Made by a program: the position numbers and the translations under genes. A stretch of 52,499 bases of DNA from Gammaproteobacteria bacterium (GTDB lineage: Bacteria > Pseudomonadota > Gammaproteobacteria > SG8-11): contig JANMQQ010000036.1 in NCBI GenBank assembly GCA_031370545.1, positions 1 through 52,499 of the forward strand, read 5' to 3'. This document shows, in pieces, positions 2,331 through 14,616 of this stretch (position 1 is its first letter; each line of letters opens with the position of its first letter). The notes under the pieces were generated by a model, which saw only the letters and a list, made by a program, of their open reading frames with translations, did no database searches and had not been told where the DNA came from.

Positions 2331-5138
2331 CTATGGGACCTGTATGCAAGCTTCACTACTCATGGCCATCCAAAACATACCGTCTTCACCATTCCCGGGC
2401 GGACCAGCGGAACCACAGTTTGTATCTTGCCACTGCCCGCTAGCACCAAAACTCCGCACTTTTAATGCAGCTCGGTTGTAGTAGGGCCCAGCAAGAAAGC
2501 CATTTGTTGTCTGTATCCGAACCTGCCCGCGCTCCGCAGTTGCGGTGTTCTCAGCGCCGACGTCATTCAGATTTACTAGAAATACTTTATTCTTCCAGCC
2601 ATGAGGTACGGCGACGTGACATAAATTACACCGAAAGGTATCAACCGCATTGGCGTGAAAAAGGTGCAAATTAACACCCATTGCACCCATGGCCATGCCA
2701 CCACCCATAGCTCCTCCGCCCATTCCCATGCACATCATCCCACCACCACCTCCACCACCCATTCCACCACCACCCATTCCACCATTCGCCATGCCACCAA
2801 CACCGCCACCCATCATGCACATTCCCGCTCCACCCAATGCAAATCCGCTGTTTTGTGCAGCGGTTTGAGCTGTATCTGCATACTGACCATAGTCGTGACA
2901 CTTGAAACAAATGTGTGTTCGCACATCCGGATTACAGGGCGCCCTATTAGCTTGGCCGCACGCATCCTCGCCAGTGCCACCAATCAAATCACCAGACCAC
3001 TTACCCTTGAGGAGAAAATTATTGGACGAACCATGCGGCCCCCAAACATTGCCATTCTCCCCACCATCCGGAACAACCGTACCTGCCTGAGTATTAGATC
3101 CGTGACAGTCGGTACAGTACATTGTTTGCACGCCCACAAACCTAAATGGGACATTCCAGTTGCGAGCATCCGCATGGCGAGCGGTTGGATCACGGCCAGT
3201 GTCGCTACGCACTGGATGCCAACTGCGATGATTGTTGGATTGAAAATTTACTAAGCTGGTCGCTGGCCCTGTATTGGCAGGAGCAGGTCCGGACCCGCTA
3301 TCTTGGGTTGTTACAGGTTCACCGCGATGGTTTGCTGGCGAGTTGTACTCATTAGCTTGGTTGGTGTACTGGGTCATTTGATTTGTGCCTGGGGCTGTAC
3401 CGCCCCTAAAAGAACCCAACATCGGTGGTGTTGCCCCGTAGGCGTAATTCGAATGACACTTTAGGCAGACCTGATACTCGCGAGTTACGTAAGGTTGGCC
3501 TACATCAGTAGGACTATTTACAGTCGGATCGCCACGCTTGATAGTGAAGGTAATGTTGCCCTCTGGCAAAGCGTTAAAGTTGCTTGATCCATATGTGGGC
3601 TCGACGCCCCACATGCCTTTCAATACCCCGGACGCGAGATTATTGTGCTGAGTGCCCCCGGTCATGTCGTGTGTATGCGTGGGCCCTGCATCCGGAGTAT
3701 TAGGATTCGCGTTGAAGATTCGATTCCTGATCACTCGGTGCGGGTTGTGACAGTCGGTACACTCCACATGGCGGTTGTTAAGATTGCCGTATCCCAGATT
3801 AACTCGTGCCTCAATGAAATCTTTGCCCGCCTGTGTAACTGCGGTCTCAGTTCCGATGTTGTGCACCTCTGGCGTAGCGCTATTTAGATTGAAGCCATTT
3901 GCCTGATCAGTTGAGGTAATCGGCATGTGCGTGTTGCCGGGGGTCGTAAAGTCGGTTTTGATATCGGGTACTGGCGTATTTAATCCTTGAGCGTTGAGCG
4001 TGCCACCATCAGATGAATGGCAGGCAAAACACGTTTGTTCAATAGCTGGATTTCCACCCTGCTTGATCAAGTAGCCGCTAGCACTAATTTTAGTCGGACC
4101 ATCGGTGCCCTCACGCAACAGGCGTCGAGAGCCTTGCACGGTGTGAATGTCATGACATGCCAAACAGGCAGTTTCCCATACCTGCTTCCCCTGCGGAAAA
4201 TCACGTACTGCCGCTGCTGCCGTTGTATATGTCCCAGTTGCAACTTGGCTATTGGCATGAGCGGAGCCGACCCATCCCTGCTTATCGTGGCAGGCGAGAC
4301 AAATAATATCTCGTGCCGGATCAAAAGCCGTGGCGGTCGGCGCACTAAGCTGAAAACGCGACGCACGCAGGAATTTGATATTTTCATTATTGAGTACGTT
4401 ATTGTCACGAATGTGCGGGTCATGACAGGTATTACACTGCACCATGCCTTCTGTTGCTCCAGGTGTTTTAGGCTCTAAGGGCAGCAGCGGCTTAACTCCC
4501 CTTTTGCGCACCCCGACGTACTGCGAGGTGGCAGGATCCCTCATATCGCCATCTTTTAATGCCAACGCTGAGTTAAACGTGAGAGAAATGGGATGGTCAT
4601 TTCGTAGATTCGTGCCGATGAAGCGAGTAAAGCCGGTATCCGTTCCTTCGCCAGGTGCCATTACACCATTTGGACCCGTGCCCTGCATTGCGATATCCGC
4701 AGTCAGTGGGTTTTGGTCCGTGAATGCACCCGTGAGTACATTCACCGCACCAATCGCCATGGTCCCGTCGTGACACGACAGGCATAACTTTGAAATACCG
4801 CTGGGCTGATCTAACGGCACATCAGGGCCAGAAGTCGCGTCAATCGATCCCGAACGATAGGTGTCGTAAACAGCGCTTGATAGCTTGCGATTCCACAATG
4901 GGGCTTGGGCCGTCTCAGCTGCATGAGGGGTATGGCAGAACACACAGATTTGTTTTTCAGTCGTTGCCGAAACTACGCGACTAGCACCCCCGGCCAAGTT
5001 GGGGGTGATGGCTGAGGAAAAATTATGCTTGGTGTTACGAATGTCGGCGATGCGCGCAGCATAGGTCTGGCTTAAAGAGAGCAAGCTCAATGCCGCAAAA
5101 AGCGCAATTACAATGATTTTAAACCGTTTGGTCCCCAT
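2331..5138 (-). CDS. Secreted undecahaem c-type cytochrome (paired-CXXCH type) with internal Gly/Met-rich tract
   Basis: 935-aa ORF with signal peptide MGTKRFKIIVIALFAALSLLSLSQTYA. It has 11 CxxCH motifs (CVFCH, CLSCH, CNTCH, CLACH x2, CFACH, CTDCH x2, CLKCH, CFKCH, CNLCH). Several are in the CxxCHxPH form seen in Geobacter-type multihaem cytochromes. Confidence 0.9.
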   Translation of the reverse strand: MGTKRFKIIVIALFAALSLLSLSQTYAARIADIRNTKHNFSSAITPNLAGGASRVVSATTEKQICVFCHTPHAAETAQAPLWNRKLSSAVYDTYRSGSIDATSGPDVPLDQPSGISKLCLSCHDGTMAIGAVNVLTGAFTDQNPLTADIAMQGTGPNGVMAPGEGTDTGFTRFIGTNLRNDHPISLTFNSALALKDGDMRDPATSQYVGVRKRGVKPLLPLEPKTPGATEGMVQCNTCHDPHIRDNNVLNNENIKFLRASRFQLSAPTATAFDPARDIICLACHDKQGWVGSAHANSQVATGTYTTAAAAVRDFPQGKQVWETACLACHDIHTVQGSRRLLREGTDGPTKISASGYLIKQGGNPAIEQTCFACHSSDGGTLNAQGLNTPVPDIKTDFTTPGNTHMPITSTDQANGFNLNSATPEVHNIGTETAVTQAGKDFIEARVNLGYGNLNNRHVECTDCHNPHRVIRNRIFNANPNTPDAGPTHTHDMTGGTQHNNLASGVLKGMWGVEPTYGSSNFNALPEGNITFTIKRGDPTVNSPTDVGQPYVTREYQVCLKCHSNYAYGATPPMLGSFRGGTAPGTNQMTQYTNQANEYNSPANHRGEPVTTQDSGSGPAPANTGPATSLVNFQSNNHRSWHPVRSDTGRDPTARHADARNWNVPFRFVGVQTMYCTDCHGSNTQAGTVVPDGGENGNVWGPHGSSNNFLLKGKWSGDLIGGTGEDACGQANRAPCNPDVRTHICFKCHDYGQYADTAQTAAQNSGFALGGAGMCMMGGGVGGMANGGMGGGGMGGGGGGGMMCMGMGGGAMGGGMAMGAMGVNLHLFHANAVDTFRCNLCHVAVPHGWKNKVFLVNLNDVGAENTATAERGQVRIQTTNGFLAGPYYNRAALKVRSFGASGQWQDTNCGSAGPPGNGEDGMFWMAMSSEACIQVP
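2676..2834 (-). repeat. Low-complexity coding tract: 53 codons of Gly/Met (30 G, 14 M, 5 A, 2 C, 1 V, 1 N) inside the undecahaem cytochrome
   Basis: It translates as GGAGMCMMGGGVGGMANGGMGGGGMGGGGGGGMMCMGMGGGAMGGGMAMGAMG, between haem motifs 10 (CFKCH) and 11 (CNLCH). On the plus strand it appears as runs of ccacc/cat. Confidence 0.9.
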
Positions 5139-5250: not shown

Positions 5251-6297
5251 TCACTTCGATAAACCACCAATATATTCGAGAATCACTACGCGGCTATTGA
5301 ACATATCGGCAACATAGACGCGACCCCTAGCGTCAGACCAAACACCCGATGGCAAATAGAACTCCCCGATTTCAGATCCCGTACCACCGATAGGCAATAG
5401 TAACTGACCATCTGGCGAATATACTAACAAATGATCGTAATACGATTCTATAACGTAGACGCGACCCGCCCGATCAACAGAAATCCCTTTAGGCCGCGGC
5501 AGGTCACCAACATTCAACCCGCGTCGACCAAACTTAAGCACGTACTTACCTTCGGGAGTGAGCACCTGTATCCGCGAGTTGAGAGTATCCGTCACATACA
5601 ATTTGTTGTTAGCGAAGGCCAGGAAAGTTGGAAAGTTGAATTCCCCGATCCCTTCGCCCCGTTGACCGATGACCTCGCGTAACTTGCCTTCATCATCGAA
5701 GACTTTGATGTTGTGTGCGTGGGTATCAGAGACGTAAATTCGGCCTGTTTTTGGGTCACGCGCAATCCCGGTAGGTCGCTTGAGTATGCCATCGCCAAAA
5801 GATCCTAGTGGCTCACCATTGGGTCCAAGCCGAATAACCTCGGCTAAATCGGCATCCGCGACCAGCAGTTGGCCGTTCGCACCTGCTACGATTCCTGACG
5901 GAGTAGCAAATTTACGCGATTGCCCGGCGTCGTCCCAAAACAATAGCTGACCCTTCGGTTCATCAAATACAAATATGCCTCGACGCCCAACATCGGTGAT
6001 GTATACCCGTCCGCGTGCATCGTCGACCACTCCCGACTGAGGTCGCTGCAACATCAACCGATCCGGTTCCGAACTGGCCAGCCCAACCAACCAGCGCAAG
6101 ATTTTTTCAAACCTGCCGCCTTCTTCCTTGAAAATATTGTCTTCCCCGGTGAACTGGCCCACGTAGCGGTACCGCGCCATTTCGGGCTGTTGCGGCCAAA
6201 CTCTGCTTTCACCCGTCGCTTCATAGCGCAAAAATGATTTGGTCTCACCGCAGGCGACAAGTGTTGTCAATAAAAAAATAATTGCTAGAACGCGCAT
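5251..6297 (-). CDS. NHL-repeat six-bladed beta-propeller lipoprotein
   Basis: 348-aa ORF with lipobox MRVLAIIFLLTTLVAC|G. It has six NHL-like blades: GRVYITDVGRRGIFVFD, GQLLVADADLAEVIRLG, GRIYVSDTHAHNIKVFD, NKLYVTDTLNSRIQVLT, GRVYVIESYYDHLLVYS, GRVYVADMFNSRVVILE. Confidence 0.85.
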   Translation of the reverse strand: MRVLAIIFLLTTLVACGETKSFLRYEATGESRVWPQQPEMARYRYVGQFTGEDNIFKEEGGRFEKILRWLVGLASSEPDRLMLQRPQSGVVDDARGRVYITDVGRRGIFVFDEPKGQLLFWDDAGQSRKFATPSGIVAGANGQLLVADADLAEVIRLGPNGEPLGSFGDGILKRPTGIARDPKTGRIYVSDTHAHNIKVFDDEGKLREVIGQRGEGIGEFNFPTFLAFANNKLYVTDTLNSRIQVLTPEGKYVLKFGRRGLNVGDLPRPKGISVDRAGRVYVIESYYDHLLVYSPDGQLLLPIGGTGSEIGEFYLPSGVWSDARGRVYVADMFNSRVVILEYIGGLSK

Positions 6298-6315: not shown

Positions 6316-7422
6316 TTACTGCACGATGATCGGGAGAGCGTCGTTGTTGTCAGTTACAACACGAAACGCTTGAACACGGCGATTCATGCTGTCCGCAACA
6401 TACAATATGTTTTGATCTGATAGCCACATGCCGGTGATCTGTCTGAACCGACCGGGGGCGTAACCAGTGCCGCCGATGGTCGCAACGAGCCGGATGTCGT
6501 CAAATATCTTGATAGTATTGTCGGAGCGATCACTCACGAAAATGCGATTGCGCTTATCAACTATGATGGCCGTAGGCCAAATAATTTGTCCGCGCGCGAT
6601 TGAAAATCGAAACGCCCCAGTATTGATATCAATTTCCTGGAGCGGCAACTCCAGTCGATCAGCAACAAAAAGGGTATCTTTACCCTTTGCGATAGCAGTA
6701 ATTGCGCGAAATTTACCAGGACCTTGGCCCCGTGAACCGATTGCAGACATGGCTTGGCCAGTTTTGCTGAAGATCACAATATGGCTATAGCTACCATCGG
6801 CGACATATATCTGTCCGCGCACCTCATCCACGACAACATCAACGGGCCGCGCCAAATTAGCCGCATCGGCAAAACGGCGAACGAAATTTCCATTGGCATC
6901 AAAATAAAGCACTTGTTTACCGACCGGATCAGCGACGTAAAAACTAAGATCCGATTCGACTGCCATGCCTGCAGGGTCGCCGACGAATTGGCTACCCGCC
7001 AGCGCCAAACTTTGAATCGCTTTTGTGGTGAGGTTATAGCGATAAATCGCGCGCGTGCCCGCATCAACGATCAACATCTGGTCTTTTACACCGCCTACTG
7101 CAACTGGAGTTAAAAATGTTACGGTGTTCCCCGCGCCCACTATGATGCGCGCGAATTCGCCCACTGCACCGCTCGCCATCTCTTGTCGACCACCGGTAAT
7201 GGGCTCCATCGCAACCAAAACTTCGGGATCCCCCGGACGTGTGTAACTGGTGAGCGGACTGACTGGCCGAGTGGTCGGCGCGGCTTTTTCCGGTGCCGTT
7301 ACCGATGATTTCAATTCAGCAACGCTGCAACTTGCAAGCATGATAATGCCCAGCACCGGTGTAAGTGCTCGCCAAGTCGGAGCGTGATTATCTCGGAGGG
7401 GTGCGATGATCGGGCAGCGCAT
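6316..7422 (-). CDS. NHL-repeat six-bladed beta-propeller lipoprotein (paralogous module)
   Basis: 368-aa ORF with probable lipobox ...VLGIIMLASC|S. Six blades are visible: DQMLIVDAGTRAIYRYN, LSFYVADPVGKQVLYFD, GQIYVADGSYSHIVIFS, DTLFVADRLELPLQEID, NRIFVSDRSDNTIKIFD, NILYVADSMNRRVQAFR. The exact start is uncertain. Confidence 0.8.
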   Translation of the reverse strand: MRCPIIAPLRDNHAPTWRALTPVLGIIMLASCSVAELKSSVTAPEKAAPTTRPVSPLTSYTRPGDPEVLVAMEPITGGRQEMASGAVGEFARIIVGAGNTVTFLTPVAVGGVKDQMLIVDAGTRAIYRYNLTTKAIQSLALAGSQFVGDPAGMAVESDLSFYVADPVGKQVLYFDANGNFVRRFADAANLARPVDVVVDEVRGQIYVADGSYSHIVIFSKTGQAMSAIGSRGQGPGKFRAITAIAKGKDTLFVADRLELPLQEIDINTGAFRFSIARGQIIWPTAIIVDKRNRIFVSDRSDNTIKIFDDIRLVATIGGTGYAPGRFRQITGMWLSDQNILYVADSMNRRVQAFRVVTDNNDALPIIVQ

Positions 7423-7474: not shown

Positions 7475-8035
7475 TTACCGCAACCCTACATTGTCGCGAG
7501 GAACGCTGTGGCAGCGATTGCATTCCAGCGGCGGGAACGCCACTTTGCCATGGCAAACCCCGCAAAACTCGCCTTCAATAATGGCCGCCATAGTTACAAA
7601 ATTTCCACCGCGTTGAGGCAGGAAAATTTCTGGATGGCAGTTTTTACACGTTAACCATTTTGTATGAGGTAAATGGGGAAACCGCACATACGGCATCGAT
7701 GCGGTGTTTTTGAAAATCACATCGAAATCGACCGAGTGCATCTTCTCTGTCCCTGACAGCCCGGTTCGCGGATTAACCATGCCTTTGTCGAGCGTGTCTA
7801 CCCAATTAATGACGCCACGCTGATCGCGCGGGAAGTTCGCCATAGCTTCGGAAGGGGGTTGTAAAATCCTAACCGCGTCATTGGTCGCATCGTGAATTCC
7901 ATCCTCGGCAATTGGAACAACATGTCCGTTCAATTGAAAATGTCCGGCACCTTCATCGGCCACCGCAGGCACGGCCAGCATACCCAACACTAATGCAACA
8001 CGCACACCACTCGGCACTGAACCACGCATAGTCAT
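7475..8035 (-). CDS. Periplasmic c7-type trihaem cytochrome (paralogue C)
   Basis: 186-aa ORF with signal MTMRGSVPSGVRVALVLGMLAVPAVA. It has three CxxCH motifs (CKNCH, CGVCH, CNRCH) in the c7 pattern VRFPHLPH..C..CH...M...G.FCGVCHGKVAF...C..CH. Confidence 0.85.
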   Translation of the reverse strand: MTMRGSVPSGVRVALVLGMLAVPAVADEGAGHFQLNGHVVPIAEDGIHDATNDAVRILQPPSEAMANFPRDQRGVINWVDTLDKGMVNPRTGLSGTEKMHSVDFDVIFKNTASMPYVRFPHLPHTKWLTCKNCHPEIFLPQRGGNFVTMAAIIEGEFCGVCHGKVAFPPLECNRCHSVPRDNVGLR

Positions 8036-8052: not shown

Positions 8053-9660
8053 CTACTGACTGACTCCGGCCAACCGCAAAGCACGCTGAATTTCCTCTGT
8101 TGCCGCTAACATCAGACTAATCGCTTCGGGATAGTTTCCAGCCTTGGCTTTTCCATCCGCTTCAGTTTTGCGCGCCCGTCCCTTCACTACATAAGTATCC
8201 ATTAATTTCACCACCGCCTCAGCAGGTTTCTTTTCTTCAAGTGCAACCGGAATCAACTCCTCATAACTTATGAACCGTTTACGTTCATATTCGTATTCAT
8301 CCGCAGGTGACTCGAAATTTAAATCATAGACGATGGTTTGGGCATTAAGCATCGCCTGGATCGCCTGCGTAACCAAGCGCTCGGCTTTAACAAGCAATTG
8401 TGTTGCCTTTTCGTGCTGCCCCTTATCACTCAGCGCATGGGCATCGCTGGCCAAGCCATCGACTTTGACGTGATCATAATCTACTGCCGCTGCAGCGCCA
8501 CGCTTCTTCACTGTGCGCTCAAAACTCCGTTTGTGCGAGTCCTGGAAATTCTTCAGGGTGTCTAACGCTTCGACGTAACGTCCACGTTGAAGCTTGGCCG
8601 CTTCTTCATTCGAAGTCGAACGCGTTGCGGCGGTGACAAGCTTTAACGCCTCTTCGGCGAGGGCCAGCGCTTGACTATTATGCCCATTGCCCAATTCTTG
8701 ACGTGCGGCTTGCACCTTACTAGTCGCACTGGAAAGAGCACTTTTTGCAGATTCGTTATCCCCTTCGGCTACCGCTTTGGTGGATTTTGACTGCAACATT
8801 AATTCAGCCAGCATGAGTTTCTGCTTGGCCGTATCACTAACATTGACTCTGGGGCCACTGGAAATTCCGGCGGCAACCTCCGGCGTATCTGCGATGCTTG
8901 TGGCCAATAACCGATTAATTTCAGCGCTCGATGCTGTCTTGTTCACTACCGCAACTTTGCCACCCATCGAGCTGTGATTACGGCATTGGTAATAAACAAT
9001 GTCAGGCGTGCTTTCCGTTGGCGACACTACGATAAGACCGCGGTAGGTAAACTGACCCTTTATTCCTTCGGTCACCGTTCCGCCACCCCATCCCATCGGA
9101 CTGGTCGAAAAATAGACGTCATGGAGCGGATTGGTTTGTACATCAAATTCGTAAACTTCCCCGCGCTTCAAAACCACAGACTTGCCTGGAACATTGTCGA
9201 GCAGGAAACCCAAATGATGCCCTTTGCCAAAATTGGGGTGCGCAGGTGTTTTCTCAGCCACAGTAATCACAAAATGATTCGGCCCCTTTTTAGGGATCGG
9301 AGTAGGCGTTGGAAAGAGCGTTGCGGTCGGAACCGGAGCGACTAAGGGCGACGCAACAGGAACCTTAGTTATTAAGGGTGGGGGGGCAACCACCGCCGCA
9401 GGCTTCATCTCGACCGCAGGCGGGTTGGGATCGACGACCACCGGTTCGGGCGCCTTTTGTGCAACCGATTTCTCCGCCACACCGGTTTTATCGACGGATG
9501 TTGATCCAGGGGCTTCCTGCTTCTGCTGTGTGACTGGGGGAGATTCAGGAGTTACTTGCGCAGCGGCAGCTTCCTTCTTGGTCGTCGCTGGGGTACCGCA
9601 GCCCGCGATGAATCCCACAACTATCGCTGCCAATAATAAAGTATTGCTGGCTCGACGCAT
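8053..9660 (-). CDS. Lipoprotein with cupredoxin (type-1 blue copper) domain and long helical C-terminal domain
   Basis: Lipobox MRRASNTLLLAAIVVGFIAGC|G. I prefer the start at 9660 (AAGGTG 8 nt upstream) over the ORF-track start at 9681. A roughly 110-aa Pro/Ala/Val linker follows, then a cupredoxin-like core with His in NPLHDVYF (9121-9123) and YYQCRNHSSMGGKVAVVN (Cys-x2-His-x2-Met, 8965-8985). The last roughly 290 aa are Ala/Lys/Glu-rich and helical. Confidence 0.75.
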   Translation of the reverse strand: MRRASNTLLLAAIVVGFIAGCGTPATTKKEAAAAQVTPESPPVTQQKQEAPGSTSVDKTGVAEKSVAQKAPEPVVVDPNPPAVEMKPAAVVAPPPLITKVPVASPLVAPVPTATLFPTPTPIPKKGPNHFVITVAEKTPAHPNFGKGHHLGFLLDNVPGKSVVLKRGEVYEFDVQTNPLHDVYFSTSPMGWGGGTVTEGIKGQFTYRGLIVVSPTESTPDIVYYQCRNHSSMGGKVAVVNKTASSAEINRLLATSIADTPEVAAGISSGPRVNVSDTAKQKLMLAELMLQSKSTKAVAEGDNESAKSALSSATSKVQAARQELGNGHNSQALALAEEALKLVTAATRSTSNEEAAKLQRGRYVEALDTLKNFQDSHKRSFERTVKKRGAAAAVDYDHVKVDGLASDAHALSDKGQHEKATQLLVKAERLVTQAIQAMLNAQTIVYDLNFESPADEYEYERKRFISYEELIPVALEEKKPAEAVVKLMDTYVVKGRARKTEADGKAKAGNYPEAISLMLAATEEIQRALRLAGVSQ

Positions 9661-9801
9661 TGATTCACACCTTCGACGCATGATTGATATGAAATTTATA
9701 ATCGAGCAATTCCTCCCCTGCGATGAGCAAATTCACAATCGTATGCTCATAACGCAGACGGGTGCGCGAACGCACCCGTACTGACTCCTAATCTTAGGAA
9801 A

Positions 9802-10479
9802 TTAGCGCCACGGATTTTTTACGCTCGCGGAACTGAGCGGCGGCTTCCAGTCATCCGGCTTTGGTTTGGAATGGCATTTTTTGCAGGACAGCGTGGTGAT
9901 TGGAAATGATACCTTGCCGTGGCATACGCCGCATTTTTGTCCGAGCAATATCGCCGACATATTGATCTGGTTTGCGCCCTTCTGCGGAATAAAAATCTTC
10001 GGATGGCAATTGGAACAATGCAACCATTGCGTATGCGGCTTATGCGGAAAAACGACGTCGGGCATGGACGCCTTGACTTCCCGAACGATATCTAAATCCA
10101 TCACGAGCGCTTCGACACTGGGATCAACACGATCATAGCGAGGATTCAGAAAGCCTTTTTGCAGCGCCTGCACCCAGTCGACATAGTTGCCGAACTCTGT
10201 TGTGGGCAACCCCTCGTAAGAAACCAACGGGGGCTGCAACACATGACTACCTTCGTTATCCGGATCATGGATACCGTCTTCCGGAGGCGGAGCGTTCCTT
10301 TGCTTGGGCTTCTTCAACAAACGATTAAACACATTCGCGGTACTAACTTTATTTGCGTCCGAATCAACTTCCTTTAACTCCATAGATTTCTTGGTCGCTT
10401 GCGTTTCAGCTGCCACTGCACCTGCGGCAGGCACCGTTGCAGCTATCAGTATCACTATCGTTTTAACAATGCTGTTCAT
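9802..10479 (-). CDS. Periplasmic c7-type trihaem cytochrome (paralogue B)
   Basis: 225-aa ORF with signal MNSIVKTIVILIAATVPAAGAVA. It has CSNCH, CGVCH and CKKCH in the same c7 pattern (VVFPHKPH..). It shares the N-terminal EDGIHD...LQPP...W[VD]..L.KG..NPR module with the 7475-8035 product. Confidence 0.85.
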   Translation of the reverse strand: MNSIVKTIVILIAATVPAAGAVAAETQATKKSMELKEVDSDANKVSTANVFNRLLKKPKQRNAPPPEDGIHDPDNEGSHVLQPPLVSYEGLPTTEFGNYVDWVQALQKGFLNPRYDRVDPSVEALVMDLDIVREVKASMPDVVFPHKPHTQWLHCSNCHPKIFIPQKGANQINMSAILLGQKCGVCHGKVSFPITTLSCKKCHSKPKPDDWKPPLSSASVKNPWR

Positions 10480-10518: not shown

Positions 10519-10995
10519 CTATTTAGCGGGCTTCGCGTCGCTCTTATCCGCAGGTTTATCCTGCGCATCAGCAGGCTTGCTGTCTTGTAACGACTTATAC
10601 GCAGGGGCCACCAAACGTTGCACGGTGCTGCCGTGAATTTGCGTCGGCGTGCCGGGGATACCGGAATGGCACATCCCGCAGTTTTCTACGGACCAGGAAA
10701 TCTCACCGTTATGGCAAGCACCACAGAATTGCCCGTCGATAATTTTGGCCATGGTGATTTTGTTACCACCCGCCTTGAACTGAAAGCCCAGATCAGCGTG
10801 GCACACTTTGCAGCGAAACCGAATGCGATGATACCAATGCGGAAACACCACTGGCCGCATGCCGGCAGCATCGGCATAATTATTAATGACAACATCCGCG
10901 TACTCGGCTTGCGCCGAGACAGGCACAAACAATCCAGCGACGCCCGCAAACACCGCCAGCGCCAACCACCACTCCTTAGTCTTTTTGATATTCAT
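10519..10995 (-). CDS. Periplasmic c7-type trihaem cytochrome (paralogue A, short form)
   Basis: I moved the start to ATG 10995 (MNIKKTKEWWLALAVFAGVAGLFVPVSAQA, with GGAGAGAG upstream). It has CKVCH, CGACH and CGMCH with VVFPHWYH. The C-terminal tail is Lys/Asp/Ala/Pro-rich. Confidence 0.85.
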   Translation of the reverse strand: MNIKKTKEWWLALAVFAGVAGLFVPVSAQAEYADVVINNYADAAGMRPVVFPHWYHRIRFRCKVCHADLGFQFKAGGNKITMAKIIDGQFCGACHNGEISWSVENCGMCHSGIPGTPTQIHGSTVQRLVAPAYKSLQDSKPADAQDKPADKSDAKPAK

Positions 10996-11058
10996 AGCCA
11001 CTCTCTCTCCCCGAAAAAACACTCTTAGTATGTGAAAGCGCACCGATAGTACAACAGC

Positions 11059-12963
11059 TCAAAAACTTCGTACAGCCTGGAAAGTCATCGAATATGCGCG
11101 TTGCCCAGGGCCAGCGTCGGTTACGCGTGCAGCTAAATTTAATGCTAGCAGACCAATCCGATACGAGAGCGAGTTATCCCAGTCCTTTGAGGCTGTGGAC
11201 TGAGTACGCTCGTCTTTCAATAATGTGGGTACCGATAATCGGGAATTAAATAACAAGCCGTGTACACCTAAAAAACGGCTATGAACATAGCCAAAATTAG
11301 CGGAAGCTGCCTTGCTGGTTTTACCGATATCGTTGATCGGAGAATTATTCGTGTTGTCAGTAGCTTCCCTATCCGGTGTACTGGCACGGCTTGCCTGGAA
11401 ACTCACACTACCTGATAGACTGCTCAACCTTGACAATTCTTGATTTCGCGCCAGTTGCGCACTCAAGACTTGAGACGCACTGGTTTGTCGCCCAAAGCTT
11501 CGCGAGTCAGATAACGATGTGCCAGCGCTAGTGCTCCCACCGAATCCGGAGTGATTCCACCCCAACGACATCGAACTTGAAAACGAACGACCTATATAGT
11601 CGGAATCACTGGACTTGGAACCTGACGCATTCTGCCCAAACGAAACGTTCATTCCAGCGTTGCGCCCCAAACTTATTGAACGTCCCAGTTGATGTGACGC
11701 ACTGACGCTAACGGAGCGCTGACTCTTTGTTTCCGTCACTGAAGCTCCGCTGCCTTCCACTGGGGTAGTTTCGCTACGACTCACACTGTTACTTACGCCA
11801 ACCCCGACATTCCAACCGTAGTCAAAACCGAAAATTCGATACTGGTCGGACGGAAGACTCGTTGAGAGTGACTGCGTGGAACTGACAGATTGACTACCTC
11901 CCGCATCAGCCACGCTCACACCCACGCCGCCGTTAACAATAAAGTTGTGCGCGAATTGGTAGGATGCGCTCGCATTTGTTGAAACACCTCGCGACGCCGC
12001 CCCGGACAACACCGTATAAATAAGGGCACCGCCACTAATATTGTAAGGTCGGTGTTCAGGTCGCCAGTAGAATGAACTTGATACTTGTTCATAAGCTGTG
12101 CGGAATGTTTCGGTACCCCCCCCGGTAGACGCTGCCCCGGAATAACTGGCGATGGAATTTACTCCCACTTCCCCCGAAGGGAAATAACTGTGGCTCAGCA
12201 AAAGGTTGGAGCTAGTACTTGTAATATCGGACTGCGCGGGATCGTTTTCGAAATACCCGCCCCCTAATCCAAAATCGTGGTACGGCACCCGTTTTCGAAT
12301 TTGAAACCCAAGTGATCGGTCGACTGAATTACCAGTTTGATAGCTCGCTGAACCCGTGTTGTGATCAAACCAAGCGTTTATATTGGTGCCATCTAATGTG
12401 TTGTAAGTTTGGCGGATATAAAATCGACGTGTCTGAGAGCTTTGTCCGTTTAACAACGCGCTGTTGCTGTCCTGCCGACTATCCGACTGCGCAAATCCAA
12501 AGTTAGTGGGAAACCGGCTCTCTGGAAACAAAGTAAGATCCACGCTGCCGCTCAGAGATTTTGAAGTAGCCTCAGAACTAACACTGCTGCCTGATCGACC
12601 TAGGCCCAGTCCAACACCCGCACCCATAGTTAAAAACCAAGGCTGCCAGAAGTATCCGCCACCGTTCAGACTTAGAGTTACATTTGACTGCTCTGATTCT
12701 GAATCAGCAATGCGCGAGTAACCGTAGCCATAACTCAAACTGCCGCCAAGGCCGGTGGGAATAAAATATTCCGCATGAACTTCGCTAGGCGAAGCGTATG
12801 AAAATAGCGCGACAACACCCGCAGTCACTAACGACCGAGCACGGGAAACATCCGTAGAGTAACGGCGCAATTGATGTGACAACAGCACTGAACCCCCGAC
12901 CCCTAGACCTACGTTACACGGACGACTGCGCGCTCGCGGGGAACCGAAGCGGCGCACCAGCAT
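11059..12963 (-). CDS. Large outer-membrane beta-barrel protein (putative porin component of the redox operon)
   Basis: 634-aa ORF that is very Ser/Gly/Tyr/Asn-rich with alternating patterns. It has no CxxCH and no long hydrophobic helix after the signal-like ...LVTAGVVALFSYASPSEVHA. The C-terminus YSMTFQAVRSF ends in Phe, like an OMP beta-signal. The true start may be the GTG at 12888. Confidence 0.6.
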   Translation of the reverse strand: MLVRRFGSPRARSRPCNVGLGVGGSVLLSHQLRRYSTDVSRARSLVTAGVVALFSYASPSEVHAEYFIPTGLGGSLSYGYGYSRIADSESEQSNVTLSLNGGGYFWQPWFLTMGAGVGLGLGRSGSSVSSEATSKSLSGSVDLTLFPESRFPTNFGFAQSDSRQDSNSALLNGQSSQTRRFYIRQTYNTLDGTNINAWFDHNTGSASYQTGNSVDRSLGFQIRKRVPYHDFGLGGGYFENDPAQSDITSTSSNLLLSHSYFPSGEVGVNSIASYSGAASTGGGTETFRTAYEQVSSSFYWRPEHRPYNISGGALIYTVLSGAASRGVSTNASASYQFAHNFIVNGGVGVSVADAGGSQSVSSTQSLSTSLPSDQYRIFGFDYGWNVGVGVSNSVSRSETTPVEGSGASVTETKSQRSVSVSASHQLGRSISLGRNAGMNVSFGQNASGSKSSDSDYIGRSFSSSMSLGWNHSGFGGSTSAGTSLSDSRSFGRQTSASQVLSAQLARNQELSRLSSLSGSVSFQASRASTPDREATDNTNNSPINDIGKTSKAASANFGYVHSRFLGVHGLLFNSRLSVPTLLKDERTQSTASKDWDNSLSYRIGLLALNLAARVTDAGPGQRAYSMTFQAVRSF

Positions 12964-13042
12964 ATCGACTACGTCGCGACTGACTCATGGAATAAAACAT
13001 GATGTACTTGGCCCTCCCGCCACCCCGTCCCCGAACCAACAT

Positions 13043-13072
13043 ATTATGAATAACGACTTTTCTTGAGTGTAA
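13043..13072 (-). promoter_or_regulatory. Candidate sigma70 promoter for the redox operon
   Basis: On the minus strand the sequence reads TTACAC-N18-CATAAT, in the 144-nt gap between the lnt stop and the barrel ORF. This is pattern match only. Confidence 0.25.
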
Positions 13073-13107
13073 GCCACCGTCGTTCGCGGTGTAAACCGTT
13101 GGCGCGC

Positions 13108-14616
13108 TCAGACAACTTGTTGCGGACGCATTCGAGCAACAAACAAAATCATCATCATCATGAATAACAGTGGCGCGATGAGTGCTACGTTTCCAAATCG
13201 CGCATAGGGCGTCGCACCCTGCATCGGCTGCACGTTCGCACGCAACACAACCGCTTCGAATTGCGGAGCTTGTGCTATTGAACGACCGCGATGATCAATC
13301 ACCGCAGTCACTCCAGTATTGGTGGCGCGCAACATCGGTCGTTGTGTTTCTATGGAACGCATACGTGCAATCTGCAAGTGTTGATGTGGCGCCATTGAAT
13401 TACCAAACCACGCGTCGTTACTCGTATTGATCAGCACGGCAGCGCTCGGCAAGGCGTTGATGACTTCCTCGCCGAAGGCATCTTCGTAGCAAATCGACAC
13501 GCCCATTGCGTACCCTGCGAGCTTTACAACTGGAGAACTGGGCTGAGTACTGAAGTCAGGCAGTGGCACCTGCATGAATTCCATCAGCCCACCGAGCATC
13601 GCGGCGAACGGAATGTACTCACCAAAAGGGACCAGGTGTTGTTTTGAATAAATCTGCTCGGGACCACCCACACTCACCATGCTGTTGTAGTACTGCTGGG
13701 TACGCGCGTTCATCACCGGCATACCAATAAACACATCGGTTCCGGCATTGCGCGCCTCTTCACCCAACTTAGTCAGAAATTCCTGCGCTTGATGGTAGAA
13801 CACCGGTAACGCGGTTTCCGGCCAGATGATCAAGTCGCTGCCCCAGTTCAGTCGTGTGTTCTCGACGTACCAGTCGATGGTGGGTTGACGTTGCTCCGGC
13901 TGCCATTTGATATCTTGCGAAACATTGCCCTGCAGCAGCGCTACCTTGATTGGCGCGCCCGCAGGCGTCGCCCATTCAATTGACGCTAAAGCCGCTATGC
14001 CCACGGTCAGCACCACAACACTGGGCAACACAACTTTCAATACATTGGCGCGCTGCGCAAATGCGATTAGCGCCGCCAAAAAACTCACCGCCCACGAAAC
14101 GCCGTAGACACCCAAGATTGGCGCGATGCCAGCCAGCGGAGAATCCACCTGGCTATATCCGACAGCCAACCAGGGAAAACCGGTAAATATCCAGCCCCGG
14201 CACCATTCACCCAGCGTCCACAACGCAGATACTGCCAGCGCGTTACTCCACAACGCTGCGGGCTGTCGAAAATAGCGCACTAATAGCCATCCGCTGACGG
14301 CCGGAAACAACGCCAGGAATAGCACAAATGCCAATGTCAACAACGCGCCCACCGGCGCCGACACGCCACCGAAATCATGCATGCTGACGTAGACCCAACT
14401 AACACCGACGCCGAACATTCCGACGCCAAACAAGAAGCCGCTCCGAAACGCTTCGCGCGTAGACGCGTGGCGCCACACAAAAAACAACGCGGCGAGACTC
14501 ATAAAAATAAGCGGGTAAAAATCGAAGGGGGCAAACGCCAACGGAACGATTAATCCCGCTGCGGTTGCCAGAGCATAACGTCGTTGTGACGTTGACAGCA
14601 GGGTGTCGAGATTCAC
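13108..14616 (-). CDS. lnt: Apolipoprotein N-acyltransferase
   Basis: 502-aa ORF with a multi-TM N-terminal half, then a CN-hydrolase domain (WPETA..., ...GVSICYEDAF...). It lies in the conserved position after corC. Confidence 0.9.
   Translation of the reverse strand: MNLDTLLSTSQRRYALATAAGLIVPLAFAPFDFYPLIFMSLAALFFVWRHASTREAFRSGFLFGVGMFGVGVSWVYVSMHDFGGVSAPVGALLTLAFVLFLALFPAVSGWLLVRYFRQPAALWSNALAVSALWTLGEWCRGWIFTGFPWLAVGYSQVDSPLAGIAPILGVYGVSWAVSFLAALIAFAQRANVLKVVLPSVVVLTVGIAALASIEWATPAGAPIKVALLQGNVSQDIKWQPEQRQPTIDWYVENTRLNWGSDLIIWPETALPVFYHQAQEFLTKLGEEARNAGTDVFIGMPVMNARTQQYYNSMVSVGGPEQIYSKQHLVPFGEYIPFAAMLGGLMEFMQVPLPDFSTQPSSPVVKLAGYAMGVSICYEDAFGEEVINALPSAAVLINTSNDAWFGNSMAPHQHLQIARMRSIETQRPMLRATNTGVTAVIDHRGRSIAQAPQFEAVVLRANVQPMQGATPYARFGNVALIAPLLFMMMMILFVARMRPQQVV

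Follow-up and report, generated by a model that had tools for sequence, protein, structure and literature searches.

The uet locus and the gene uetF

The stretch of DNA analysed here (the window, 52,499 nucleotides) is contig JANMQQ010000036.1, positions 1 to 52,499, of the assembly GCA_031370545.1 from a gammaproteobacterium of the GTDB lineage SG8-11. Among the sequencing runs listed as holding this DNA, the best is a freshwater-sediment metagenome, from which the DNA may come; RNA runs are not among them. On its minus strand the genes of a porin-cytochrome cluster are found, and within this cluster lies a gene for a predicted lipoprotein, which joins a cupredoxin-fold domain to a long helical domain. 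An earlier note on this DNA, made from the letters alone, had described the protein as a tethered cupredoxin located between trihaem cytochrome genes and its architecture as one not known from characterised systems. The placement is right, since both flanking genes encode c7-type trihaem cytochromes (UetE and UetG). The architecture had already been named, though never characterised: judged by sequence and gene order, the gene is an orthologue of the one for UetF ("Cupredoxin UetF") of the uet cluster.

The cluster uetABCDEFGHIJ was defined in 'Candidatus (Ca.) Tenderia electrophaga' by Malanoski and colleagues, where Uet stands for 'undecahaem electron transfer'. With this porin-cytochrome cluster, Tenderiales-like Gammaproteobacteria would presumably take up electrons from minerals or electrodes outside the cell. 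Here, UetC is a beta-barrel, UetD, UetE and UetG are c7 trihaem cytochromes predicted to be periplasmic, UetH and UetI are NHL propellers and UetJ is an extracellular undecahaem cytochrome. UetF (ALP54627.1) was described as 'much larger' than azurin, rusticyanin and plastocyanin and as possibly having another role (bioRxiv 10.1101/2022.05.06.490989). In this published description the lipobox, the tether, the ligand set and the character of the helical part go unmentioned. The window protein (535–542 amino acids, depending on the start codon) agrees with it both in size and in carrying a cupredoxin.

Later papers use Uet as a predicted porin-cytochrome complex and contain nothing further on UetF, the supplements of the Gallionellaceae paper hold no UetF entry, and public databases name UetF proteins 'hypothetical'. 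Therefore, the family has a name but is biochemically uncharacterised. A Tenderia protein that, from its gene position, would be the same one was called a tetratricopeptide-repeat (TPR) protein (Tel_16525); its gene lies among three trihaem genes and is co-transcribed with them, and these rank with the most strongly expressed genes of the Tenderia metatranscriptome. Peptides of the protein were detected, and Eddie et al. (2017) proposed that it aligns cytochromes (PMC5371394).

The open reading frame (ORF) of uetF encodes 542 amino acids from the ATG at 9681, and the plus strand of 8053-9660 gives a translation full of stops. A second in-frame ATG at 9660, with the Shine-Dalgarno-like sequence GAAGGTG 7 nt upstream, gives 535 amino acids. 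The database copy of the protein has the same start and length, and ATG 9660 is likely the true start. Residues are nevertheless numbered throughout from the ATG at 9681. All motifs listed in the earlier note are present in the translation, namely the lipobox IAGC, NPLHDVYF with His187 and YYQCRNHSSMGGKVAVVN; the stretch YYQCRNHSSMGG holds Cys233, His236 and Met239. The note thus concerned a real feature, the anatomy of which had been read correctly (Table 1).

A word-based protein search returned 99 relatives of UetF, nearly all full length and unnamed. Scanning one genome per species gave 172 encoding loci, the best 80 of which were used, all from gammaproteobacterial metagenome-assembled genomes (MAGs). 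Conservation was counted over 81 species-level orthologues with 33–100% identity, and a family alignment of 36 sequences (A1) was built. The gene order UetC-D-E-F-G-H-I-J is kept in 80/80 related loci as far as the contigs extend, including those of two 'Ca. Tenderia sp.' MAGs (L060 and L071; tblastn E 8e-87 and 4e-83, 34% identity over UetF residues 3-541). Towards proteins of the genus Tenderia, UetF shows full-length homology with 34–37% identity, and the Tenderia gene occupies the same place between uetE and uetG in a cluster of the same overall order.

Table 1. Position of uetF, of the parts of its product and of the neighbouring uet genes in the window.
Feature	Position	Strand	Remark or basis
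uetF ORF	8053..9681	-	stop codon 8053-8055
Signal peptide ending in lipobox IAGC (residues 25-28)	9598..9660; lipobox 9598-9609	-	translation, orthologue conservation
Disordered Pro/Ala/Val/Thr/Lys-rich tether, 104 aa	9286..9597	-	pLDDT 33-48
Cupredoxin-fold domain, residues 133-250	8932..9285	-	eight strands pLDDT >90, fold matches, PF25489
His148 in loop K-x3-H-P-x-F-G-x-G between strands 1 and 2	9238..9240	-	79/80 UetF
His187, predicted first copper ligand, in loop before strand 189-192	9121..9123	-	81/81, model
Ligand loop C233-R-N-H236-S-S-M239 between last two strands	8965..8985	-	81/81, pseudoazurin alignment, motif of relatives
Short helix 252-264 and low-confidence linker 267-277, between folded modules	8851..8931	-	model
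Helical bundle 1, residues 279-363	8593..8847	-	model, three-helix-bundle matches
Helical bundle 2, residues 363-453; 60-residue helix common with bundle 1	8323..8595	-	model, fold search
Helical bundle 3, residues 455-541, with C-terminal motif RALRxxGV	8059..8319	-	model, fold search, conservation
Most conserved helical block QTIVYDLNF..EYEYE..SYEELIPVA..KKP, residues 447-486	8224..8343	-	alignments, model
UetC	11059-12963	-	barrel
UetD	10519-11043	-	trihaem
UetE	9802-10479	-	trihaem
UetG	7475-8035	-	trihaem
UetH	6316-7422	-	NHL propeller
UetI	5251-6297	-	NHL propeller
UetJ	2331-5138	-	11 CXXCH

The predicted copper domain of UetF

The residues His187, Asp188, Tyr190, Cys233, Asn235, His236, Met239 and Gly240 are identical in 81/81 orthologues, at a mean column identity of about 40% across the family (alignment A1). 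Because the copper motifs are invariant against this background, they are not a matter of chance. A further histidine, His148, is kept in 79/80 UetF orthologues. An AlphaFold2 model based on the family alignment displays eight strands at a predicted local distance difference test (pLDDT) score above 90 for residues 130-250. Within this model, the strand 228-233 ends with Cys233, and the loop ahead of the last strand 241-246 holds His236 and Met239. As modelled, the layout of strands and ligands is that of a canonical cupredoxin.

Fold searches point in the same direction. With the 542-residue model as a query, Foldseek returned rusticyanin, plastocyanin, nitrosocyanin, pseudoazurin and multicopper-oxidase domains at probabilities up to 1.0, reached for rusticyanin, and E values of about 1e-2. 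Re-alignment of the top matches with VIA gave 124 chains at Z>=8, the best being the N-terminal type-1 domain of the Hyphomicrobium denitrificans nitrite reductase HdNIR (Z 9.8, root-mean-square deviation 2.8, 97 residues aligned), and rusticyanin reached Z 9.2-9.6 over 104-110 aligned residues. Laccase domains, too, are matched in the range Z 8-10. The search against all representatives brought up small laccase, rusticyanin, nitrosocyanin and a copper-bound Bacillus cupredoxin at Z 7.3-8.2. Residues 122-246 of the model align to rusticyanin 11-155, and Met239 stands 7 residues from the aligned end, as does the ligand Met148 of rusticyanin. Furthermore, the family profile matches pseudoazurin among profiles of the Protein Data Bank (PDB) marginally (E 0.03), its Cys and His falling on the Cys and His of pseudoazurin. 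A profile of the small domain matched only fusions with GB1 or TEV tags in the PDB, which are artefacts and not relatives.

Taken together, ligand conservation and the predicted fold make it probable, and we hold this with good confidence, that the domain binds one type-1 copper via His187, Cys233, His236 and the axial Met239. The ligand set with the spacing C-x2-H-x2-M on a cupredoxin, as read in the earlier note, is borne out by the invariant residues, the eight-stranded model and the fold matches. The label 'amicyanin-like' is apt for the length of the ligand loop. It does not extend to the family: in the profile search that the note had proposed as a check, no classical cupredoxin family was among the families listed at E<=0.1, and the domain most probably falls in PF25489, found in 34/36 UetF relatives.

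An unsolved domain family with the same ligand motif

PF25489 (At5g54830-like domain) is the sole Pfam match of the copper domain among the families listed, and the best-scoring UetF orthologue reaches 33.2 bits. In the genome of the window, a search for this domain found a single copy. A phmmer search with residues 128-252 retrieved 1148 clusters at 50% identity, 260 of them at E<=1e-10, and proteins bearing PF25489 were among those retrieved at E values from 1e-65 to 1e-15. These relatives comprise single-domain proteins of 140-260 amino acids, tandem arrays and giant proteins. An alignment of 69 domains drawn from the 1148 clusters has the signature K-x3-H-P-x-F/Y-G-x-G, followed by H-P-F-Y and then by Y-Y-x-C-x2-H-x2-M-G. 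The cysteine is found in 67/69 of these domains, the second histidine in 66/69, the methionine in 67/69 and the first histidine in 65/69. UetF shares these motifs (K-x3-H-P, H-P/D-x-Y, Y-Y-x-C-x2-H-x2-M-G), with His-Asp where its PF25489 relatives have His-Pro, and stands alone among the members in carrying a three-bundle helical domain. The assignment of the UetF copper domain to this large family, which is structurally unsolved and has the same ligand motif, is made here for the first time and rests on sequence comparison.

Four of the relatives (P0101, P0103, P0120 and P0171) are very large proteins, some with 3-4 copies of the domain together with MopE-type copper-binding motifs and SprB repeats. 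Among such very large proteins there are also one with a DOMON domain and another in which the relative is joined to a bacterial globin.

The company of MopE-type motifs would fit a different use of the site, namely copper handling (as a chaperone, in sequestration or in sensing) or a nitrosocyanin-like catalysis, instead of outer-sphere electron transfer. The fold matches include nitrosocyanin, and the near-invariant extra His148 would lie in the loop that borders the copper site in classical cupredoxins. However, the ligand set and its spacing are those of type-1 sites in electron transfer, and the gene is embedded among cytochromes, not among genes of copper homeostasis. The position of His148 holds a histidine in 59/69 domains of the wider family. 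Since it is replaced by Asn, Asp, Ser or Tyr in the remaining ~15%, a second-sphere residue suits it better than a ligand. A role in copper handling or catalysis is therefore considered very improbable, and an electron-transfer site is the preferred reading of the domain.

Signal peptide, predicted lipid anchor and tether

The signal peptide of UetF ends in IAGC, which matches the pattern [LVI][ASTVI][GAS]C of bacterial lipoprotein lipoboxes. Cys28 is the predicted lipidated residue and is followed by Gly at position +2. The lipobox cysteine is kept in 68/81 orthologues, where +2 is Gly, Ala, Ser, Val or Gln and never Asp; one further orthologue ends at a contig edge, and 12 have no lipobox. 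Because the +2 residue is not Asp, the E. coli sorting rule suggests that UetF is probably directed to the outer membrane. The anchor is common in the family and not obligatory.

Behind the anchor, the 104 residues of the tether (P 22, A 16, V 15, T 12, K 10) have low pLDDT. In the family, tethers measure 63-150 amino acids (median 104) and are rich in Ala, Pro, Glu and Val. The earlier note had put the tether at about 110 residues and called it Pro/Ala/Val-rich, which comes close on both counts. The propellers UetH and UetI also open with lipoboxes (LASC|S and LVAC|G). Together with UetF, the uet cluster of the window thus encodes three predicted lipoproteins, none with Asp at +2.

A lipobox joined to a long Ala/Pro/Glu-rich linker recalls Laz of Neisseria, for which surface exposure has been reported and whose linker resembles that of UetF. 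UetF might likewise be exposed at the cell surface, where its copper would take electrons directly from Fe(II), from minerals or from UetJ outside the cell, and the cluster does encode that extracellular cytochrome. Nevertheless, 12/81 orthologues carry a plain Sec signal and 11 of these are without a long tether, which fits a soluble periplasmic protein better. In addition, a gene for surface-lipoprotein export did not come to notice among those of the cluster, and the prediction for the neighbouring trihaem cytochromes is a periplasmic location. Surface exposure appears quite unlikely, and the soluble, lipobox-less orthologues argue for a periplasmic site of action.

The helical module

The helices of UetF run from about residue 252 to 537, roughly 290 residues. 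Modelled alone (residues 276-542, alignment of 41 sequences), the helical domain has a mean pLDDT of 89 and forms nine helices in three consecutive three-helix bundles. A comparison between the bundles by hhalign gave a probability of 92% over 37 columns for bundles 2 and 3 and of 59% for bundles 1 and 2, which is weak; that the three are diverged repeats is suggested by these sequence matches, albeit faintly. The family alignments contain no invariant His or Cys in this domain, so that a second cofactor is unlikely.

A Foldseek search with the helical domain gave nothing at E<=0.001. Against all representatives, VIA superposed each third on generic three-helix bundles, among them the periplasmic DUF4398 protein PA2901 for bundle 1 (Z 10.2, 95 residues aligned) and, at Z 11.4, a designed uranyl binder. 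The spectrin-like rod of EzrA was matched at Z 9.6 over 162 residues. All of these Z scores (<=11.4) are below the level that is informative for helical folds. In the ESM Atlas only unnamed clusters were found, with DUF4398/OmpL37 as leads at 0.82. YfdX (PF10938) does not match the UetF of the window; one relative scores 28.6 bits against a cut-off of 26.6, and others remain below the cut-off at E 1e-4 to 0.02. Profile matches in the PDB were designed helical proteins and TPR proteins and were rejected as true relatives. The earlier note had described a long Ala/Lys/Glu-rich helical domain that it could not assign, and confident helices without a significant known relative are what the model and the searches return.

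The most conserved part of the domain is the block 447-486, which also includes its only low-confidence loop (450-452) and is conserved in relatives that lack the cupredoxin or stand alone. Because it is the most conserved block and spans this loop, it is a candidate for a partner-binding surface, as far as the model allows.

Separable modules

A six-frame search in 300 genomes sampled across the class found full-length UetF in about 20 and, in addition, many matches to the helical part alone; the earlier note had suggested that the helical domain be sought in other proteins. Ten of the helical-only places were examined for their gene neighbourhood. At four of them, a protein of 277-307 amino acids, composed of a signal peptide and helices without C-x2-H-x2-M, occupies the position of UetF between UetE and UetG. 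Such uet clusters indicate that the copper and helical modules are separable. The conserved block and the C-terminal RALRxxG are common to all short and stand-alone helical forms. A Pfam scan of the short helical forms gave no match above threshold, although weak YfdX matches recur. Searching with a short UetF returned 14 unnamed proteins with 'hypothetical protein' as the only cluster names, and a word-based search for short stand-alone helical proteins gave 8 matches, seven of them on contigs of <=5.2 kb.

The copper-bearing forms do not group as a single clade in the tree built from the helical domain. Forced monophyly is rejected by the approximately unbiased test (p-AU 9.4e-6), with the reservations that the group to be tested was chosen in view of the tree and that the tree has some long branches. 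By this sequence-based tree, loss or gain of the copper module has occurred more than once.

This history would also suit a mainly structural or docking role, in which the helical rod would keep trihaem cytochromes, NHL propellers and barrel in order. The cupredoxin would then be a dispensable addition, and its copper, if bound at all, would lie off the main electron path. Four uet clusters make do with cupredoxin-less UetF, which is tandemly duplicated in two of them, the most conserved block outside the copper site sits in the helical domain common to all forms, and the alignment of cytochromes is the very role that Eddie et al. (2017) had proposed (PMC5371394). Where the cupredoxin is present, however, the four ligand residues are 100% invariant across the 81 species despite overall identities down to 33%, and therefore strong selection must act on the metal site itself. 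A mainly structural role is regarded as unlikely, albeit less so than surface exposure. It is compatible with the preferred copper relay and differs from it mostly in emphasis.

Several individual forms may be recorded besides. Two tandem copies of the short, cupredoxin-less UetF lie in the uet clusters L084 (5857-8682) and L087 (5090-6828), the former of which also encodes a UetE with four CXXCH motifs instead of the usual three and an extra UetD-like trihaem protein. A paralogue of 392-394 amino acids, in which a lipobox and long tether are joined directly to the helices without a cupredoxin, is found at L085 (5656-6840) and L088 (5647-6825). It lies outside uet clusters and adjoins response-regulator-like genes and, judged by gene size and order only, an efflux-like pair of the resistance-nodulation-division type; the genomes concerned also carry a full-length UetF. 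Finally, a 268-residue protein (L091, 5974-6780) corresponds to UetF residues 103-352 only, that is, to the cupredoxin with C-x2-H-x2-M and the first bundle. It is encoded outside a uet cluster, upstream of a 1220-residue ORF.

Variation within the uet cluster

The clade of the window differs from Tenderia at both ends of the cluster. In the window (11059-14616) and its closest relatives (L002-L005) lnt abuts uetC, and the tetrahaem UetA and the isomerase UetB are missing upstream, whereas more distant loci (L006 onward) have a gene for a UetA-like tetrahaem protein of 270-350 amino acids ahead of uetC. After uetJ, the window encodes a double lactonase-type propeller of 714 amino acids (171-2315; present in 13/80 loci), where Tenderia has ccsAB.

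Between the uetE stop and the uetF start lies a perfect 9-bp hairpin, ACGGGTGCG / CGCACCCGT, with a UUCG tetraloop (9758-9779, minus strand); a U-run does not follow. The hairpin might serve to stabilise or process the operon mRNA.

The UetF homologues P0044, P0045 and P0049 carry the label 'Kaarinaea lacus', a name that taxonomy assigns to the cyanobacterial family Nodulariaceae. These contigs probably belong to an associated gammaproteobacterium in the assembly of a non-axenic culture, in which case a Uet-bearing organism may grow in that culture.

The inner-membrane protein conserved in PCC3 and PCC4 has five transmembrane helices and two W-x3-H-x13-H motifs (He et al., 2017). As a counterpart of UetF it was ruled out, since UetF has only the N-terminal signal helix and no W-x3-H-x13-H.

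Comparison with known cupredoxins

Rusticyanin of Acidithiobacillus ferrooxidans is among the best structural matches of the UetF domain and, as a cupredoxin between outer-membrane and periplasmic cytochromes in the electron-uptake chain of Fe(II) oxidation, would also be a functional parallel. In contrast to UetF, it is soluble, has the ligand spacing C-x4-H-x4-M and acid-stable, high-potential adaptations, lacks a helical domain and shares 15-16% identity with UetF. Laz, the lipid-modified azurin of Neisseria, resembles UetF in its lipobox, its Ala/Pro/Glu-rich flexible linker and its single type-1 cupredoxin on the outer membrane. It differs in belonging to the azurin family (C-x4-H-x3-M), in a much shorter linker and in having neither C-terminal helices nor a porin-cytochrome cluster. 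With amicyanin, UetF has in common the shortest ligand loop found in nature, C-x2-H-x2-M, and behind it a Gly/Lys-Val strand. Sequence homology between the two is not detectable, amicyanin has Asn behind the first His where UetF has Asp, and amicyanin is a soluble partner of methylamine dehydrogenase. By sequence, UetF is placed in none of these three families.

Proposed role of UetF

From its sequence, its model and its neighbours, UetF is proposed to be the copper relay subunit of the Uet electron-uptake conduit and the sole non-haem redox component proposed for it, a reading that we favour with moderate confidence. After Sec export, the protein would be lipidated at Cys28, as the lipobox suggests, and sent to the outer membrane, Asp being absent from +2. 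There it would hang from a flexible tether of about 100 residues. The cupredoxin would hold its copper through the invariant His/Cys/His/Met set on a loop of amicyanin length and serve as a high-potential one-electron relay. As the gene context suggests, its electrons would come from the trihaem c7 cytochromes UetD, UetE and UetG, which UetJ, the extracellular undecahaem cytochrome, would supply through the UetC barrel, and would go on towards acceptors in the periplasm or the inner membrane. The C-terminal rod of three three-helix bundles, which carries no conserved metal ligands and is the part kept in those uet clusters whose UetF is without a copper domain, most likely docks UetF to other Uet components.

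The confidence attached to these steps differs. The binding of a type-1 copper is the firmest, the relay between the trihaem cytochromes and downstream acceptors is held with moderate confidence, and the anchoring in the outer membrane on its periplasmic side, suggested by the signal sequence, is held with less confidence than the relay.

Several points weigh against the proposed role. The direction of electron flow and the partners are taken from the gene neighbourhood alone, and the predicted template-modelling score (pTM) of the full model is 0.40, so the placement of the copper and helical modules relative to each other is not fixed. Regarding the copper domain, the UetF of the window scores 19 bits against a PF25489 cut-off of 27. 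The genome search gave 20.5 bits, likewise below the cut-off. A sequence search of the PDB detected no solved PF25489 structure. The scan of the 36 members gave 29 families at E<=0.1, and the 25 of these that were listed include no classical cupredoxin family of Pfam. Where classical cupredoxins have Asn behind the first His, UetF has Asp and the wider family Pro. Finally, of the 12/81 orthologues with a plain signal peptide, 11 are almost without a tether (441-467 amino acids) and one (L044, 493 amino acids) retains a long linker. Together with the 4/10 helical-only places at which a copper-free protein sits in the position of UetF, they imply that neither the anchor nor the copper centre is obligatory for the Uet system.

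A wider proposal joins three statements: that PF25489 is a large unrecognised clade of type-1 copper proteins (>1,000 clusters at 50% identity, with the ligand loop of amicyanin length), that UetF is its electron-uptake member, and that the helical module is a new, Uet-specific docking family to which the copper module was repeatedly added or from which it was lost. As a whole this can be put forward only tentatively, and it is clearly less probable than the relay itself. If it is true, a copper exit node is present in some of the related conduits and absent from others.

New here are the analysis of the ligands, the assignment to a domain family, the anatomy of the helical part and the anchored, soluble and copper-free variants. 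There are few candidate routes by which neutrophilic chemolithoautotrophs might take up electrons from solid donors, and the Uet cluster is among them. Its sole predicted copper centre is UetF, which links the cluster to a large, structurally unsolved domain family with the same ligand motif. The soluble copper domain (~120 amino acids) is a tractable target for spectroscopy and electrochemistry, and the anchored and soluble as well as the copper-bearing and copper-free forms of UetF offer natural comparisons for the contribution of copper. If the proposed role is correct, a high-potential type-1 copper after the haem chain would help to explain how these organisms operate at cathode potentials near +0.3 V.

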